Positions 1-39,132 of a stretch of DNA of 64,000 nucleotides are shown piece after piece; the first letter of the stretch is position 1; each line of letters opens with the position of its first letter. The stretch comes from Escherichia coli. Its GTDB lineage: Bacteria; Pseudomonadota; Gammaproteobacteria; Enterobacterales; Enterobacteriaceae. A model generated the notes under the pieces. That model had not been told where the DNA came from, searched no databases, and saw only the letters and a program-made list of their open reading frames with translations. The stretch is taken from assembly GCF_003334335.1 (NCBI RefSeq), contig NZ_QOWQ01000013.1. The stretch is one strand, 5' to 3'. The position numbers and the translations under genes were made by a program.

Positions 1-115
1 ACGCGAGGCATCGTCTTAACGAGGCACCGAGGCGTCGCATTCTTCAGATGGTTCAACCCTTAAGTTAGCGCTTATGGTATTCATCCCCCTACCTCTTCCC
101 ACTAAGAGAATCCTT

Positions 116-520
116 ATGAAATCCGTTTTTACGATTTCCGCCAGCCTGGCGATTAGCCTGATGCTGTGCTGCACGGCGCAGGCAAACGACCATAAACTCC
201 TCGGCGCCATTGCAATGCCGCGTAACGAAACCAACGATCTGGCGCTGAAACTTCCTGTTTGTCGCATTGTGAAACGCATACAACTCTCTGCCGACCATGG
301 CGATTTACAGTTAAGCGGTGCATCGGTTTATTTCAAAGCCGCCCGTAGCGCCAGTCAGAGCCTGAATATTCCTTCAGAAATAAAAGAAGGGCAAACCACT
401 GACTGGATCAACATTAACAGCGATAACGACAATAAACGCTGCGTCTCAAAAATCACCTTTTCGGGTCATACGGTGAACTCATCGGATATGGCCACGCTGA
501 AAATTATCGGCGACGACTAA
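116..520 (+). CDS. yaaI: YaaI (MbiA), DUF2541 secreted protein
   Basis: ORF 74..520 trimmed to internal ATG at 116 giving N-terminus [23 protein letters not shown] (signal-peptide-like); position next to yaaW matches K-12 synteny. Confidence 0.8.
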
Positions 521-545
521 CGCCAGAATATAGAAGCCACAAAAA

Positions 546-1259
546 ATGAATGTTAATTACCTGAATGATTCAGATCTGGATTTTCTTCAGCATTGTAGTG
601 AGGAACAGTTGGCAAATTTCGCCCGATTGCTCACCCATAATGAAAAAGGCAAAACTCGCCTCTCCAGCGTACTGATGCGCAACGAACTGTTTAAATCGAT
701 GGAAGGGCATCCCGAGCAACATCGCCGCAACTGGCAGCTGATTGCCGGAGAATTACAGCATTTTGGTGGCGATAGTATCGCCAACAAACTGCGCGGACAC
801 GGTAAATTGTATCGGGCCATTTTGCTCGATGTTTCAAAGCGATTGAAGCTGAAAGCCGACAAAGAGATGTCTACGTTTGAAATTGAGCAACAGTTACTGG
901 AACAATTTCTGCGTAATACCTGGAAGAAAATGGACGAGGAACATAAGCAGGAGTTTCTGCACGCGGTCGATGCCAGGGTGAATGAGCTGGAAGAGCTGCT
1001 GCCGCTGCTGATGAAAGACAAATTATTGGCAAAAGGTGTGTCGCATTTGCTTTCCAGCCAACTGACCCGCATTTTACGCACCCACGCAGCAATGAGCGTA
1101 CTTGGGCATGGTTTGCTGCGCGGCGCGGGGCTGGGAGGCCCTGTAGGTGCTGCACTAAATGGGGTTAAAGCGGTCAGCGGCAGCGCCTATCGCGTGACGA
1201 TTCCAGCCGTACTGCAAATCGCCTGCCTGCGCCGGATGGTTAGCGCCACTCAGGTCTGA
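546..1259 (+). CDS. yaaW: YaaW, UPF0174 family protein
   Basis: 237-aa ORF; recognised sequence and synteny. Confidence 0.85.
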   Translation: MNVNYLNDSDLDFLQHCSEEQLANFARLLTHNEKGKTRLSSVLMRNELFKSMEGHPEQHRRNWQLIAGELQHFGGDSIANKLRGHGKLYRAILLDVSKRLKLKADKEMSTFEIEQQLLEQFLRNTWKKMDEEHKQEFLHAVDARVNELEELLPLLMKDKLLAKGVSHLLSSQLTRILRTHAAMSVLGHGLLRGAGLGGPVGAALNGVKAVSGSAYRVTIPAVLQIACLRRMVSATQV

Positions 1260-1407
1260 TACCGGAAACCGGGGAAAATTTTCATTTTCCCCTCAAAAGA
1301 TCGTAGACACTGCCCCACTGGCTGATTATTATGCCGCGCCCTGAAAACACTACAGTTATTCAGGGAAATTATTTCACCATTCATTCGATGATGATTTTTG
1401 AGGAATT

Positions 1408-1974
1408 ATGGGCAACACTAAGTTGGCTAATCCGGCACCGCTGGGCCTGATGGGCTTCGGCATGACCACCATTCTGCTTAACCTGCACAACGTGGGTTAT
1501 TTCGCTCTGGACGGTATTATTCTTGCCATGGGCATTTTCTACGGCGGCATCGCGCAAATTTTTGCTGGTCTGCTGGAGTACAAAAAAGGCAACACTTTCG
1601 GTTTAACCGCATTCACCTCTTACGGTTCTTTCTGGCTGACGCTGGTTGCGATTCTGCTGATGCCGAAACTGGGTCTGACCGATGCGCCAAATGCACAGTT
1701 CCTTGGTGTCTACCTGGGTCTGTGGGGCGTATTTACGCTGTTTATGTTCTTCGGCACGCTGAAAGGCGCACGCGTTCTGCAATTCGTTTTCTTTAGCCTG
1801 ACCGTGCTGTTTGCCCTGCTGGCGATCGGTAACATTGCCGGTAACGCCGCAATCATCCACTTTGCCGGCTGGATTGGGCTGATCTGCGGTGCCAGCGCAA
1901 TCTATCTGGCGATGGGTGAAGTACTGAACGAGCAGTTTGGTCGCACCGTTCTGCCGATTGGTGAATCCCACTAA
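1408..1974 (+). CDS. satP: succinate-acetate/proton symporter SatP (GPR1/FUN34/YaaH family)
   Basis: 188-aa highly hydrophobic ORF with YaaH-family sequence; synteny. Confidence 0.9.
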   Translation: MGNTKLANPAPLGLMGFGMTTILLNLHNVGYFALDGIILAMGIFYGGIAQIFAGLLEYKKGNTFGLTAFTSYGSFWLTLVAILLMPKLGLTDAPNAQFLGVYLGLWGVFTLFMFFGTLKGARVLQFVFFSLTVLFALLAIGNIAGNAAIIHFAGWIGLICGASAIYLAMGEVLNEQFGRTVLPIGESH

Positions 1975-1985
1975 TTGTTTTGAGA

Positions 1986-2012
1986 TCCCCCCGCTCGGGG
2001 GGATTTTTTTAT
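1986..2012. terminator. bidirectional rho-independent terminator between convergent satP and mog
   Basis: cccccc-gctc-gggggg hairpin followed by T-run (gggggattttttt). Confidence 0.6.
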
Positions 2013-2596
2013 TCGCTAACGTCGCGTCTTGCACTCTTCGGTCTGAATGCTGCAACCACTTCCGGTGCCGTTTCAACGTATGGCCCTTCCAGCAACTGAA
2101 TGCAGTACGGTACGCTGGCAAAAATACCGTGTACCACAACGTTACCCTCAGCGTCCTTCACACCTTCCAGCGTCTCTTTAATAGACTTCGGCTGACCGGG
2201 TAAGTTAAGGATCAGCGCCTGTTTGCGAATCACGCCCACCTGACGCGAAAGGATCGCAGTTGGTACAAAATGCAGGCTGATCTGGCGCATCTGTTCACCA
2301 AAGCCAGGCATCTCGCGGTCCGCTACTGCCAGCGTCGCATCGGGCGTTACGTCACGACGCGCCGGGCCAGTTCCGCCCGTGGTGAGCACCAGATGGCAAC
2401 TCATTTCATCCACCAGCTCACACAACGTTTGCTCGATGATCGCCTGCTCATCGGGGATTAAGCGGGTTTCCAGTTCAAACGGCGTGGTTAGCGCCGATGT
2501 CAGCCATTCTTCCAGCGCAGGGATGCCTTTATCCTGATAAACGCCGCTGGATGCGCGATCAGAGATGGAAACTAAGCCAATACGTAAAGTATTCAT
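2009..2596 (-). CDS. mog: molybdopterin adenylyltransferase Mog
   Basis: ORF product MNTLRIGLVSISDRASSGVY...; second ATG taken as start (195 aa). Confidence 0.9.
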   Translation of the reverse strand: MNTLRIGLVSISDRASSGVYQDKGIPALEEWLTSALTTPFELETRLIPDEQAIIEQTLCELVDEMSCHLVLTTGGTGPARRDVTPDATLAVADREMPGFGEQMRQISLHFVPTAILSRQVGVIRKQALILNLPGQPKSIKETLEGVKDAEGNVVVHGIFASVPYCIQLLEGPYVETAPEVVAAFRPKSARRDVSE

Positions 2597-2710
2597 CAAG
2601 ATTTTTCCGTTTAAACAGTCTCGTTAAACAGAATGATACACTGCGAAGGGAGTGACAGACAGGCTTCAGAAGAGGTAGCGTGACCGACTTCCCGGTCACG
2701 CTAAGAATGA

Positions 2711-3664
2711 TTACAGCAGATCGCCGATCATTTTTTCCAGTTTTTCCTGGTCAATAGCAAACTTACGGATACCTTCCGCCAGTTTATCTACTGCCATTGG
2801 ATCCTGGTTGTGCTGCCACAGGAACTCGGACTCAGTGATACGCGCCGGACGCGCTTTCACTTCGCCGGTGTAAGACAGTTTACGTTCGATAGCCCCTTCG
2901 CTCTCCGCCAGCTCTTTCAGCAGTGCCGGTGCGATGGTCAGACGGTCGCAGCCTGCCAGTTCCAGAATTTCGCCGATGTTACGGAAGCTTGCGCCCATAA
3001 CCACGGTTTCATAACCGTGCTCTTTGTAGTACTGGTAGATTTCAGATACAGAAACCACGCCCGGATCTTCTGCCGGAGCGTACTCTTTCTTATCGGTATT
3101 CGCTTTGTACCAGTCAAGAATACGGCCAACAAACGGCGAGATCAGGAACACGCCCGCTTCCGCACAAGCACGAGCCTGAGCGAAGGAGAACAGCAGGGTC
3201 AGGTTACAGTTGATGCCTTCTTTTTCCAGCTGTTCTGCAGCACGGATACCCTGCCAGGTAGAAGCCAGTTTGATCAGAATACGATCGTTGCTAATACCAG
3301 CATCGTTGTAGAGTTTGATCAGGCGTTTTGCTTTCGCAATTGACGCTTCGGTGTCATAGGAAAGACGCGCATCAACTTCAGTTGAGATACGGCCCGGAAC
3401 CAGTTTCAGGATTTCCAGACCAATATTTACTGCCAGTTTGTCGGTCGCGTCCACGATCTGCTGCGCGCGATCGTTGCTCTGCTGTTTCGCCCAGGCGACA
3501 GCATCATCAATCAACTTACGGTATTCCGGAATCTGCGCTGCGTTAAGAATGAGAGAAGGGTTGGTTGTGGCATCCTGCGGTTGATACAGCTTCATTGCCG
3601 CGATGTCCCCAGTGTCGGCCACTACGGTGGTGTACTGACGAAGGGAGGTCAATTTGTCCGTCAT
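2711..3664 (-). CDS. talB: transaldolase B
   Basis: ORF 2711..3727 trimmed to [40 protein letters not shown] (317 aa). Confidence 0.95.
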
Positions 3665-3942: not shown

Positions 3943-5373
3943 ATGCCAGATTTTTTCTCCTTTATTAACAGCGTCCTTTGGGGATCGGTAATGATTTACC
4001 TGCTCTTCGGCGCAGGTTGTTGGTTCACTTTTCGCACCGGATTTGTGCAGTTTCGCTACATCCGCCAGTTTGGCAAAAGTCTTAAAAATAGCATTCATCC
4101 ACAGCCAGGCGGTTTAACCTCATTTCAGTCATTGTGTACCAGTCTTGCGGCGCGCGTGGGTAGCGGCAACCTGGCCGGCGTTGCGCTGGCTATTACCGCC
4201 GGTGGACCAGGTGCCGTCTTCTGGATGTGGGTTGCCGCGTTTATCGGCATGGCGACCTCGTTTGCCGAATGTTCCCTTGCACAACTTTATAAAGAACGTG
4301 ACGTCAATGGGCAGTTTCGTGGCGGACCGGCATGGTATATGGCGCGCGGGCTGGGGATGCGCTGGATGGGCGTTCTGTTCGCCGTCTTTTTGCTCATCGC
4401 CTACGGCATAATTTTCAGCGGAGTTCAGGCAAACGCTGTTGCCCGAGCCCTGAGTTTTTCTTTTGATTTTCCCCCGCTGGTGACAGGCATTATTCTCGCT
4501 GTCTTTACTCTGCTGGCAATCACTCGCGGTCTTCATGGCGTCGCCCGGCTCATGCAGGGGTTTGTCCCGTTGATGGCGATAATCTGGGTACTGACCAGCC
4601 TGGTGATTTGCGTAATGAATATCGGGCAACTTCCCCACGTCATTTGGTCTATTTTTGAGAGTGCTTTTGGCTGGCAGGAAGCGGCAGGCGGCGCGGCGGG
4701 ATATACCTTAAGCCAGGCGATTACTAACGGTTTTCAGCGCAGTATGTTTTCCAATGAGGCGGGAATGGGTTCGACGCCAAACGCGGCAGCGGCAGCTGCG
4801 TCCTGGCCTCCGCATCCGGCAGCACAAGGGATTGTCCAGATGATTGGCATTTTTATCGACACCCTGGTCATCTGTACGGCAAGCGCCATGCTGATATTAC
4901 TGGCGGGTAACGGCACAACCTACATGCCGCTGGAAGGTATTCAGCTTATCCAGAAGGCGATGCGGGTGCTAATGGGTTCCTGGGGTGCTGAATTTGTTAC
5001 CCTCGTGGTTATTATGTTTGCCTTCAGCTCCATCGTTGCCAACTACATTTATGCCGAAAACAATCTCTTCTTTTTACGCCTGAACAACCCTAAAGCGATC
5101 TGGTGTTTGCGGATCTGCACCTTCGCAACGGTCATCGGTGGCACCTTGCTAAGTCTTCCGCTGATGTGGCAACTGGCAGATATCATAATGGCCTGCATGG
5201 CTATTACCAATTTGACCGCCATTTTACTGCTCTCGCCTGTGGTTCATACCATTGCCAGTGATTATCTACGCCAGCGTAAACTCGGCGTGCGCCCGGTGTT
5301 TGATCCGTTGCGTTATCCGGATATCGGTCGCCAGCTTTCTCGGGACGCGTGGGATGATGTTTCGCAGGAGTAA
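3943..5373 (+). CDS. yaaJ: alanine/glycine:cation symporter family transporter YaaJ
   Basis: 476-aa polytopic membrane ORF; synteny. Confidence 0.9.
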   Translation: MPDFFSFINSVLWGSVMIYLLFGAGCWFTFRTGFVQFRYIRQFGKSLKNSIHPQPGGLTSFQSLCTSLAARVGSGNLAGVALAITAGGPGAVFWMWVAAFIGMATSFAECSLAQLYKERDVNGQFRGGPAWYMARGLGMRWMGVLFAVFLLIAYGIIFSGVQANAVARALSFSFDFPPLVTGIILAVFTLLAITRGLHGVARLMQGFVPLMAIIWVLTSLVICVMNIGQLPHVIWSIFESAFGWQEAAGGAAGYTLSQAITNGFQRSMFSNEAGMGSTPNAAAAAASWPPHPAAQGIVQMIGIFIDTLVICTASAMLILLAGNGTTYMPLEGIQLIQKAMRVLMGSWGAEFVTLVVIMFAFSSIVANYIYAENNLFFLRLNNPKAIWCLRICTFATVIGGTLLSLPLMWQLADIIMACMAITNLTAILLLSPVVHTIASDYLRQRKLGVRPVFDPLRYPDIGRQLSRDAWDDVSQE

Positions 5374-5442: not shown

Positions 5443-6219
5443 ATGCTGATTCTTATTTCACCTGCGAAAACGCTTGATTACCAAAGCCCGTTGACCACCA
5501 CGCGATATACACTGCCGGAGCTGTTAGACAATTCCCAGCAGTTGATCCATGAAGCGCGGAAACTGACGCCTCCGCAGATTAGCACGCTGATGCGCATCAG
5601 CGACAAACTGGCGGGTATCAACGCCGCTCGCTTTCATGACTGGCAGCCAAATTTCACGCCGGAGAATGCCCGCCAGGCGATTCTGGCGTTTAAAGGTGAT
5701 GTCTACACCGGCTTGCAGGCCGAAACCTTCAGCGAAGACGATTTCGATTTTGCCCAACAGCATTTGCGAATGCTTTCCGGCTTGTATGGCGTACTGCGCC
5801 CGCTCGATTTAATGCAGCCTTATCGTCTGGAAATGGGGATCCGTCTTGAGAATGCCCGAGGGAAAGATCTGTATCAATTCTGGGGAGATATCATCACCAA
5901 CAAGCTGAACGAGGCGCTCGCAGCACAAGGCGATAATGTGGTGATTAATCTGGCGTCAGATGAGTATTTTAAATCGGTGAAGCCGAAGAAATTGAATGCC
6001 GAGATTATCAAGCCGGTGTTCCTCGATGAGAAGAACGGCAAATTTAAGATCATCAGCTTCTACGCTAAGAAAGCACGCGGTCTGATGAGTCGTTTCATTA
6101 TTGAAAATCGGCTGACCAAACCAGAGCAACTGACTGGTTTTAATAGCGAAGGTTACTTCTTTGATGAAGCTTCCTCCAGCCATGGCGAACTGGTGTTTAA
6201 ACGCTACGAGCAGCGTTAA
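5443..6219 (+). CDS. yaaA: peroxide stress protein YaaA (UPF0246)
   Basis: 258-aa [20 protein letters not shown]...; synteny. Confidence 0.9.
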
Positions 6220-6223
6220 GTTT

Positions 6224-6365
6224 GTAGTCAATGTCGGATGCGGCGTGAACACCTTATCCGGCCTACAAAAGCATGCAGATTCAATATATTGCAGAATTCA
6301 CGTAGGCCTGATAAGACGCGCCAGCGTCGCATCAGGCGCTGAATGCCGGACTGTTACCCGGCATT
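6224..6365. repeat. REP/BIME palindromic repeat cluster
   Basis: cggatgcggcgtgaac...cttatccggcctaca and taggcctgataagacgcg...cgcatcaggc REP motifs. Confidence 0.6.
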
Positions 6366-6371
6366 TGTTAT

Positions 6372-6671
6372 TTAGCGGTGATGTTTGCCTGGACCATTAC
6401 CGCCGTGATGATCATGATGAGCTTTCTTATGGTGACGCGGCGGCGGTGGCGGCGGTCCGTGTGGGTGCCAGCGATTGCCTCGCCATTCATAATGTTGTTT
6501 CCACCAGCCGTGGTCGCGCCAGTGACCGCCATCCCAGTAATAACCGCGATTATCACGATCGCCTATCTGTAATTTTACTGACGGGACTAACGTAATTTCC
6601 GCAGCCTGCGCTGCCATGGGAGCGACCAGAACCAGGGAAAGTGCGAGTACGATAGATTGCATCTTTTTCAC
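6372..6671 (-). CDS. yaaX: YaaX (DUF2502), secreted His/Pro-rich protein
   Basis: 99-aa ORF with N-terminal signal peptide and C-terminal [17 protein letters not shown] tract. Confidence 0.85.
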
Positions 6672-6828
6672 AGGTTACTCCTTTTATCATTGCCCGTTAT
6701 GGGTCGATATCCGGAGATTACGCGATGAGAACGGCAGTTGTTATTCTCCGCAATCCTAATCTCTAAGTTACCGCATTTATTGAGAATTTCTCCTTTTTCC
6801 CTGTCGTTTCTCTCCATATTTTCTTCAC

Positions 6829-6862
6829 AAAAAAGCCGGGCTGCATAAAAGCAAACCCGGCC
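6829..6862 (-). terminator. thr operon rho-independent terminator
   Basis: minus-strand hairpin gccggg...cccggc followed by T-run, just downstream of thrC stop. Confidence 0.55.
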
Positions 6863-6884
6863 TGATTGAGATAATGAATAGATG

Positions 6885-8171
6885 TTACTGATGATTCATC
6901 ATCAATTTACGCAACGCAGCAAAATCGGCGGGCAGATTATGCGAAAGCAAGGGTAAATCAGCACGTTCTGCCAGCTCTTTTGGCAGATCCAACGTTTCAC
7001 CGAGAATCGCTTCCACGCTCTCTTTAAATTTCGCCGGATGCGCGGTGCCGAGGAACAAGCCATATTCGCCTGGATTCAACTGGTCACGCAGCGCACGATA
7101 CGCTACGGCAGCGTGCGGCTCCGAAGTGTAGCCCAGTTCTTTTAACTCACGCATTGTCTGTTGCGTGGTTTCATCATCCACGGCTGCATAACCCAGCTCT
7201 TTCAGTTGCCAGATTTTGCGGCGGAACAATTCTTCCACACGCGGCCAGTTGTTCGGCTGGCTCACGTCCATCGCGTTGGATAACGTCGCCTGAGTCGCTT
7301 TGGGTGACCACTGACCGTCGTGCAGGAAACGTGGCACGGTATCGTTCACGTTGGTCGCAGCAATAAAACGTTTCACCGGCAGACCGAGTGACTTCGCCAG
7401 CAGACCCGCCGTCAAATCGCCGAAGTTTCCGCTTGGCACCGAGACAACCAGCTGGTTACGCGCTTCCTGCGGCAGCTGCGCAACAGCTTCAAAGTAGTAG
7501 CAAATCTGCGCCAGCAAACGGCTGATGTTAATCGAGTTAGCTGAGTTTAACCCCAGCGCCACTTTCAGCTCTTCATCATCAAACGCCTGCTTCACCAGCG
7601 CCTGACAGGCATCGAAATCGCCGTCGATGGCAACAGTTTCGATATTGCCGCCCAATGTACAGAACAGTTTTTCTTGCAGTGGACTGATTTTGCCTCGTGG
7701 ATAGAGGATAACCACTTTCACATTCGGTAAACCGTAGAAAGCATGAGCCACTGCCGCTCCGGTATCACCGGAGGTCGCGGTCAGAATGGTCACTGGCTTA
7801 TCGCCCGCAATATGGGTCAGCATTTGTGCCATAAAGCGACCGCCGAAATCTTTAAATGCCAGCGTTGGCCCGTGGAACAATTCCAGACAACCGACATCGC
7901 TTTCAACATTGGCGACCGGAGCCGGGAAGGCAAACGCCGCGCGCACGCGCTCTTCCAGGATTTCCTGCGGGATTTCATCACCAATAAACGCCGAGAGGAT
8001 CTTCGCACTGCGGGTGACAAAATCCAGCTTCAGCATCTCATCAATTTCAGTCAGGCTGAATTCCGGCAGGTCGTGCGGAAAAAACAGCCCCTGATTTTTG
8101 CCCAACCCCTGGGTTACGGCTTGCGCAAAGCTGACCTGCTCATTGTGATCTTTAAGATTGTAGAGTTTCAT
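6885..8171 (-). CDS. thrC: threonine synthase
   Basis: 428-aa [22 protein letters not shown]... Confidence 0.97.
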
Positions 8172-11647: not shown

Positions 11648-11716
<69 letters not shown>

Positions 11717-11739
11717 TGTTGTGTACTCTGTAATTTTTA

Positions 11740-11800
11740 TCTGTCTGTGCGCTATGCCTATATTGGTTAAAGTATTTAGTGACCTAAGTCAATAAAATTT
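11740..11800 (-). promoter_or_regulatory. thr operon promoter region
   Basis: minus-strand TTGACT ... TACTTT-like elements upstream of thrL; position inferred from known thr leader organisation. Confidence 0.4.

Positions 11801-37830: not shown

Positions 37831-39128
<1,298 letters not shown>

Positions 39129-39132
<4 letters not shown>

Follow-up and report, generated by a model that had tools for sequence, protein, structure and literature searches.

The question raised by this locus is whether the proline- and histidine-rich end of the small protein YaaX is encoded by a repeat that varies in length among strains, and what such a C-terminus may do for the cell. The window, that is, the whole stretch of 64,000 nucleotides of Escherichia coli DNA that was analyzed, carries the end of the thr operon in reversed orientation, with thrC at 6885..8171 (-), then yaaX, and then the convergent yaaA (5443..6219, +) and yaaJ (3943..5373, +). 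The open-reading-frame listing places yaaX at 6372..6671 (-) with a product of 99 aa, and its position between thrC and the convergent yaaA is the orthologous one, the thrC-yaaX-yaaA-yaaJ synteny being common to E. coli, E. fergusonii, Kluyvera and Enterobacter according to the window ORFs, RefSeq annotation and the loci compared. Pfam DUF2502 (PF10697) matches the product with E=8.5e-14 and 52 bits over residues 25-97 (model positions 1-89 of 90), and a yaaX or DUF2502 annotation accompanies the match in 5,425 of the 5,426 RefSeq complete E. coli genomes, which bears out the name given to the gene in an earlier, sequence-only reading of this stretch. Only one contig labeled Salmonella enterica (L012, GCA_050507695.1) has the thrC-yaaX-yaaA locus (protein P0041); typical Salmonella are not known to carry yaaX, so the label or the lineage of that assembly is questionable. 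The features to which the argument refers are the following.

6372..6671, minus strand: yaaX coding sequence, 99 codons plus a TAA stop (6372-6374), with a GTG start (6669-6671) (ORF list, translation, Pfam, RefSeq).
6678..6683, minus strand: Shine-Dalgarno sequence AAGGAG, 6 nt ahead of the GTG (sequence reading; AAGGAGT is kept in five genera).
6603..6671, minus strand: Sec-type signal peptide, residues 1-23, with predicted cleavage between AQA and AE (sequence features, conserved AxA, invariant A23/E25).
6456..6602, minus strand: DUF2502 core, rich in Trp, Arg and Asp, residues 24-72 (columns of 57 homologues, pLDDT).
6438..6455, minus strand: hexaproline tract, residues 73-78 (sequence, Tandem Repeats Finder, allele survey).
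6375..6437, minus strand: C-terminal tail, His-rich, cationic and predicted to be disordered, residues 79-99 (translation, composition, AlphaFold2).
6340..6367, no strand assigned: GC-rich hairpin of 10 bp, 4 nt past the yaaX stop (T-run on the + strand; present in both E. coli tail haplotypes).
6738..6806, minus strand: conserved upstream block of about 70 nt (...GCAGGGAAAAAGGAGAAATTCTCAATAAATGCGGTAACTTAGAGATTAGGATTGCGGAGAATAACAAC) (alignment of five loci).

Inspection of the YaaX N-terminus by eye showed a hydrophobic core behind a K-K n-region, followed by the putative cleavage site between AQA and AE; P18, A23 and E25 are invariant across the 57 aligned homologues, and residues 3-20 form a low-confidence helix in the AlphaFold2 model. 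YaaX fits a small Sec-type exported DUF2502 protein, with export predicted from this signal peptide, and its earlier description as secreted or periplasmic is consistent both with the signal peptide and with the term "putative periplasmic protein" used in the literature (PMC2731931). The window protein has every invariant or near-invariant column of the 57-sequence alignment (core motif IGDRD-x2-G-x-YWDG-x2-WRD-x2-WW-x2-HY-x-WR-x-NRW), the core is invariant in eight E. coli alleles except at four variable positions (21, 55, 70, 71), and AlphaFold2, run on the same alignment, gives a pLDDT of 86-93 over residues 31-70, so that the Trp/Arg/Asp-rich core of about 49 residues is confidently predicted to fold. 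Every membership feature that was tested was found, and YaaX is a bona fide DUF2502 member. We regard this anatomy, together with the allele status of the window tract described below, as practically certain.

The six prolines of the window protein are encoded by CCGCCGCCACCGCCGCCG at 6438-6455 (-), read as CCG CCG CCA CCG CCG CCG, whereas the species-typical tract, CCG CCG CCA CCG CCG, has one CCG fewer. The DNA quoted in the sequence-only reading, ccgccgccaccgccgccg, is the reverse complement of 6438-6455, and the tail peptide quoted there is exact, being reproduced by in-frame translation of 6372-6482 (-), where it spans 6375-6458; the interval given for it, 6372-6480, does contain the peptide, but its upper coordinate is out of frame by 1-2 nt, in a frame that holds stops. 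Tandem Repeats Finder describes the tract as a minimal array, either of period 3 with 6.3 copies or of period 9 with 2 copies (scores 31-36), and its GC content is 0.89, compared with 0.54 for the yaaX coding sequence and 0.52 for the window. CCG is the preferred proline codon of E. coli, and the "GC-rich repeat" is therefore a by-product of encoding polyproline. The proline run and the His tail both exceed chance: about 0.01 runs of six prolines are expected per E. coli proteome, and the probability of at least 10 His in 31 residues, the number found in the last 31 of YaaX, is about 1e-9, both figures resting on proteome-like residue frequencies. In the six-frame translation of the window PPPPPP occurs in a single other place, 38844-38861 (+), within an ORF of 101 aa that lies antisense to one of 259 aa (38353..39132, -), and this second run looks like an off-frame artefact with no gene behind it. 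The densest His stretch of the same translation lies elsewhere, at 11655-11759 (-), just upstream of a thrA-sized ORF; we take it to be an out-of-frame reading of the run of Thr/Ile codons in the thr leader (thrL), and not a His-rich protein.

Comparison among strains showed that the six-codon tract (P6) is a rare allele. With the window yaaX coding sequence as query, a 300-nt match was obtained in exactly 28 of 5,426 complete E. coli genomes (~0.5%), the other full-length matches listed being 297 nt long, and the five-codon tract is present in ~99.5% of complete genomes. A 461-nt region of the window around yaaX was matched at 100% identity by strain ET201 alone, with almost every other genome 3 nt shorter, and in the DNA alignment the P6 and P5 alleles differ by a clean 3-nt CCG indel within the tract: (CCG)2CCA(CCG)3 in the window and in strains 95-3322 and GF4-3, and (CCG)2CCA(CCG)2 in D7 and O157. 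Two tract types dominate in E. coli, PPPPP at ~71% and PPPSP at ~26-28%, the latter encoded by CCG CCG CCA TCG CCG in SCU-176 and in B2-like strains. In a sample of 60 evenly spaced E. coli genomes, all 44 full-length rows carried ungapped five-codon alleles; ~71% of the sample had uninterrupted PPPPP on a K-12-type tail and ~26% were of B2 type, and only one of the 60 rows had a mismatch count that would allow PPPSP to be joined to a K-12-type tail. No P7 or P8 was found in complete E. coli genomes, where a synthetic P8 query ranked the 28 P6 genomes first (141/147 nt) and five-codon alleles after them, and a synthetic P2 query found no tract shorter than five codons in these genomes, a survey in which shorter or longer alleles may be missed when they lie on divergent haplotypes.

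Judged from mismatch counts, all 28 P6 genomes carry a linked Asn91 codon (GGN instead of GGH) and, because of this linkage, P6 among the complete genomes is read as a single, stably inherited haplotype. Rarer alleles were encountered in a larger protein collection that includes draft assemblies, namely P2 (P0140), P4 (P0122, P0123) and P8 (P0154, P0212), together with point-interrupted tracts (PSPPP, PLPPP, PPSPP). In this wider collection P6 is linked to GGN in some entries and to GGH in others, and P8 likewise has two backgrounds, a pattern pointing to repeated slippage. E. fergusonii is likewise polymorphic, with (CCG)3CCA (P4, 298 contigs) beside (CCG)4CCA (P5). The annotated tract-length changes are all in frame, that is, multiples of 3. 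The extra CCG of P6 is what would be expected when replication slips in a CCG microsatellite that is short and interrupted, and the P6 of the window is a rare, stably inherited and otherwise ordinary allele of a known gene.

It is possible to go further and regard the CCG repeat as a contingency locus, in which frequent slippage would generate functional diversity or on/off switching of YaaX. The existence of P2 to P8 alleles, the occurrence of P6 and P8 on two haplotypes each, the P4/P5 polymorphism of E. fergusonii and the many database entries of the YaaX family that are frameshifted at or near the tract speak for such a role. The allele survey, however, largely refutes it, and we consider it highly improbable, as there are only 2+2 or 2+3 CCG units, split by CCA, deviation from five codons is seen in just 28 of 5,426 complete genomes, all of one haplotype, and neither this survey nor the 44 ungapped five-codon rows of the sample shows a repeat number that is hypervariable among close strains. 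The unit of change is 3 nt and the annotated variants keep the frame, so that no length change that would switch the frame on or off was seen, and the frameshifted entries, most of which stem from draft or metagenome assemblies, are the result of sequencing errors and no evidence of switching. The yaaX CCG tract is a weak in-frame microsatellite, neither hypervariable nor phase-variable. The sequence-only reading had called the repetitive DNA prone to length variation and had proposed to compare tract length across strains; that the tract is not invariant was borne out, by P2, P4, P5, P6 and P8 and by the P4/P5 pair of E. fergusonii, but the variation is rare and always in frame.

The frameshifted family "proteins" (P0009-P0023, P0216-P0221 and many of P0222-P0297) show hydrophobic pseudo-tails, and several of them act as cluster representatives of the YaaX family. 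The pseudo-tails produced by such sequencing errors are long because DNA rich in CAY/GAY can hold no stop codon in its +1 frame. The alternative-frame ORF at 6368..6556 (-) and the antisense ORF at 6378..6572 (+) were dismissed as compositional artefacts, the +1 frame being open since CAY/GAY gives no stops, and a programmed frameshift at CCG-CCG was not supported.

Downstream of the tract, E. coli has two tail haplotypes. The K-12 type, RHHKKA(P/H)HDHHGG(H/N)GPGKHHR, was found in 4,030 genomes, and ~1,395 genomes (~26%; B2-like, including Nissle and ST131) encode a diverged tail, RHNKHNDHRGDHRPGPDKHHR. The B2-like genomes match only nucleotides 1-232 of the window yaaX coding sequence, so the divergence starts exactly at the proline tract; up to that point B2-type yaaX is 97-98% identical, and beyond it the tail and the spacer are sharply diverged (6372-6440 (-) compared with L001/L005). 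SCU-176 joins the tract SNPs of the B2-like strains to a K-12-type tail, and the pattern suggests an old recombination boundary at the proline tract. As the B2-type motif NDHRGDH..PGPD also occurs in E. marmotae, E. fergusonii and other genera, the Asp-poor and strongly cationic tail of K-12 and of the window looks derived. Further in-frame tail indels were observed in P0142, in Shigella dysenteriae P0204, in P0206 and in Kluyvera proteins of 110, 102 and 96 aa.

The tails of 95 cluster representatives are 23-49 residues long, and when pooled they contain H 29%, D 19%, R 15%, P 11% and G 10% (83% together), with hydrophobic residues almost excluded, a His fraction of 0.14-0.45 (median 0.31) and an extreme C-terminus that is usually KHH or HHR. 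Net charge ranges across the family from strongly cationic to acidic. A high His content is kept throughout the family in spite of changing sequence, and this argues that the histidines matter. From 86-93 in the core, the AlphaFold2 pLDDT of YaaX drops over the final three blocks of 10 residues to 65, 48 and then 47, and the tail is probably disordered, in agreement with the "flexible" tether that had been suggested earlier and with the 83% of H, D, R, P and G.

The family itself is narrow, because a core-only HMMER scan of 1.84 billion representatives yielded just 82 clusters. In DUF2502 members the IGDRD..YWDG..WRD..WW repeat occurs once or twice and precedes a His-rich, Pro-rich or CPPGQAKKGRC-type tail; His-rich tails recur among distant one- and two-repeat relatives of YaaX, and paralogue-like proteins of the YpeC type also finish in GHGHGHH-type tails. 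Proline runs of at least four, by contrast, are confined to Escherichia and Kluyvera (95 cluster representatives plus the protein collection), and the run is dispensable for the core function of the family, being absent in 75 of the 95 representatives. Structure and fold searches found no solved structure or fold relative for DUF2502 or YaaX, and the NCBIfam, Pfam and structure/fold searches found no homology of YaaX to a characterized metal-binding family; NCBIfam matches to Phr, FomA and Spy were sub-threshold, driven by the signal peptide and meaningless.

Previous studies place yaaX in the envelope stress response. In K-12 it belongs to the RcsB regulon (PMC2731931, PMC3599342); colicin M raises its expression 4.12 log2-fold beside other Rcs genes (PMC3599342), treatment with a LolCDE inhibitor raises it 8- to 12-fold (PMC5105897), and its Serratia homologue was among the candidate Rcs-regulated promoters for reporter plasmids, picked for similarity to yaaX (PMC8470065). 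The paralogous gene, ypeC, is controlled by MarA/SoxS (PMC5684230). The block at 6738-6806 (-) is almost invariant in the E. coli, E. fergusonii, Kluyvera, Enterobacter and P0041 loci, and the spacer flanking it is not; it probably serves as a promoter or as the binding site of a regulator, as would be in keeping with the published Rcs control. Near yaaX no match to the RcsAB box TAAGAATATTCCTA was found at up to three mismatches, and the window-wide count was that expected by chance. Sites for RcsB alone are more degenerate than the RcsAB box.

The proline tract also carries the hallmark of a translational pause. Ribosomes classically stall on five or six prolines in a row. Reports of Ude and of Doerfel in 2013 are said to have established PPP motifs as EF-P-dependent stall sites, for which at least three consecutive prolines are taken as the sequence hallmark, and YaaX has PPPPPP at residues 73-78. 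A review that cites Chadani et al. 2016 mentions a proline-related pause in yaaX, recorded by nascent-chain profiling and also by Ribo-seq (PMC13410324). Our literature search found no EF-P data for YaaX. The sequence-only reading had missed the stall motif with its reported pause, the rarity of P6 itself, the RcsB regulon and the absence of the run from most genera.

The RNA and the spacer around the end of yaaX were considered as well. The hairpin at 6340-6367 is a terminator-like site for the convergent yaaA because its T-run lies on the + strand. An mRNA structure over 6330-6490 (-), in which the CCG tract would pair with a downstream GGCGG, was rejected, as its z-score was -1.06 and 34 of 200 shuffles folded as well. 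The yaaA-yaaX spacer (6220-6371) contains REP/BIME-type palindromes, with inverted repeats at 6253-6266/6302-6315 and 6306-6319/6324-6337, and an Rfam scan of 6100-6950 placed there the REP-derived ES036, just above threshold, and naRNA4, below it; the same scan found nothing in the tract except a chance snoRNA hit (E=0.12). B2-type strains lack the REP palindromes, and yaaA there ends 40 nt past yaaX, compared with ~152 nt in the window, and in strain 95-3322 an IS1397 is inserted in the REP region between yaaA and yaaX.

Considering these findings together, our best explanation combines a slippage allele, a proline run that acts as pause and spacer, and a tail that binds metal or protons, and we give this combination as a whole slightly less than an even chance. 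The proline run would be a stiff polyproline-II spacer and may also be an EF-P-dependent ribosome pause site, as knowledge of the PPP motif and the reported pause would imply, and the His-rich tail would, during envelope stress, present to the periplasm a flexible site that binds divalent metals (Zn, Ni or Cu) or protons with low affinity. That the YaaX tail binds metal or protons is a tentative proposal, to be taken as more doubtful than probable; it is favored by the constancy of His content in the family (median 31%), against which sequence, length and net charge drift. The protein has dense His clusters in a flexible segment, with 10 His in the last 31 residues and low pLDDT. Published links to metals are tenuous: in cusS mutants selected with silver, yaaX varies in expression along with zraP and cus genes (PMC10920338), and a role in iron for yaaX/yaaA was a matter of speculation (PMC7093028). 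Against metal or proton binding, the rapid divergence of the tail, with two E. coli haplotypes, many in-frame indels and a swing in charge, also fits relaxed constraint.

Relaxed constraint is the basis of an alternative that we judge somewhat unlikely, in which the tail is a compositionally biased "filler" that has no specific ligand and drifts, being harmless or serving as a hydrophilic aid to the solubility or export of the core. The wide differences in tail sequence and length between genera (23-49 residues), the two deeply diverged E. coli haplotypes whose split begins at the proline tract, the frequent in-frame deletions and duplications (P0142, P0204, P0206, Kluyvera 110, 102 and 96 aa) and the relatives that carry a CPPGQAKKGRC motif or a Pro-rich tail at the end instead would all follow from such drift, but composition is kept better than pure drift would be expected to keep it: the His fraction is high (median 0.31, minimum 0.14) in 95 of 95 representatives, hydrophobic residues are almost excluded, the KHH/HHR extreme C-terminus recurs and the YpeC-type proteins share GHGHGHH-type tail ends. 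A different emphasis would make the proline tract chiefly a translational throttle, with EF-P activity setting YaaX output, length alleles tuning it and the His tail being incidental. The pause seen by nascent-chain profiling and Ribo-seq (PMC13410324), the standing of PPP as an established EF-P-dependent stall motif and the natural alleles that differ in run length and interruption (PPPSP, PSPPP, PLPPP) agree with this; the run is nevertheless missing in most genera that have a YaaX-type protein and its near-fixation at five codons within E. coli means that little tuning is under way, so we hold the throttle to be unlikely. Returning to metal or proton binding, a broader extension of it would take DUF2502 (YaaX under Rcs, YpeC under MarA/SoxS) as an unrecognized class of stress-induced periplasmic metal/proton buffers whose function lies in the His-rich disordered tail, and whose output or geometry in Escherichia would be tuned by an EF-P-dependent polyproline spacer (P2 to P8, PPPSP); this we regard as decidedly unlikely.

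Neither the yaaX gene and its DUF2502 family nor the proline pause is new, and the additions made here are minor: a P6 allele at ~0.5%, two tail haplotypes that split at the tract, family-wide His-richness and a proline run confined to Escherichia and Kluyvera. They matter little beyond annotation, YaaX being one of many small envelope-stress proteins of E. coli. The conserved His-rich disordered tail leads nonetheless to a concrete and cheap hypothesis, periplasmic metal or proton binding under Rcs stress, and the natural series P2, P4, P5, PPPSP, P6 and P8 is a ready set for relating polyproline length to EF-P-dependent synthesis of a secreted protein. For databases, the tract and the CAY/GAY-rich tail generate frameshifted "proteins" that pollute the cluster representatives of the family.

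When compared with known systems, the window protein stands closest to DUF2502 itself, as it shares with YaaX and YpeC the Pfam match, the signal peptide, the core, the synteny and the His-rich tail, and it differs from the usual YaaX in having six prolines instead of five and Asn91 in place of His91. Its resemblance to EF-P-dependent stall motifs (PPP/PPG) lies in the sequence hallmark, six prolines being four overlapping PPP placed 21 codons ahead of the stop, and in the pause given in the review (PMC13410324). Like the phase-variable repeats of the Neisseria/Haemophilus type, yaaX has a coding trinucleotide repeat with some copy-number alleles; unlike simple-sequence contingency loci, the repeat is far too short, interrupted and ~99.5% fixed, and it has no on/off switching. 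Histidine-rich metal tails and periplasmic metal "sponges" include the tails of SlyD and HypB, the His loop of ZnuA, ZraP and SilE/PcoE. YaaX likewise has a short, disordered, His-dense segment on a small stress-induced protein that is predicted to be periplasmic, but it lacks the Met-rich motifs of SilE/PcoE and has no sequence or fold homology to any of these proteins, so that the likeness is one of resemblance and not of membership.
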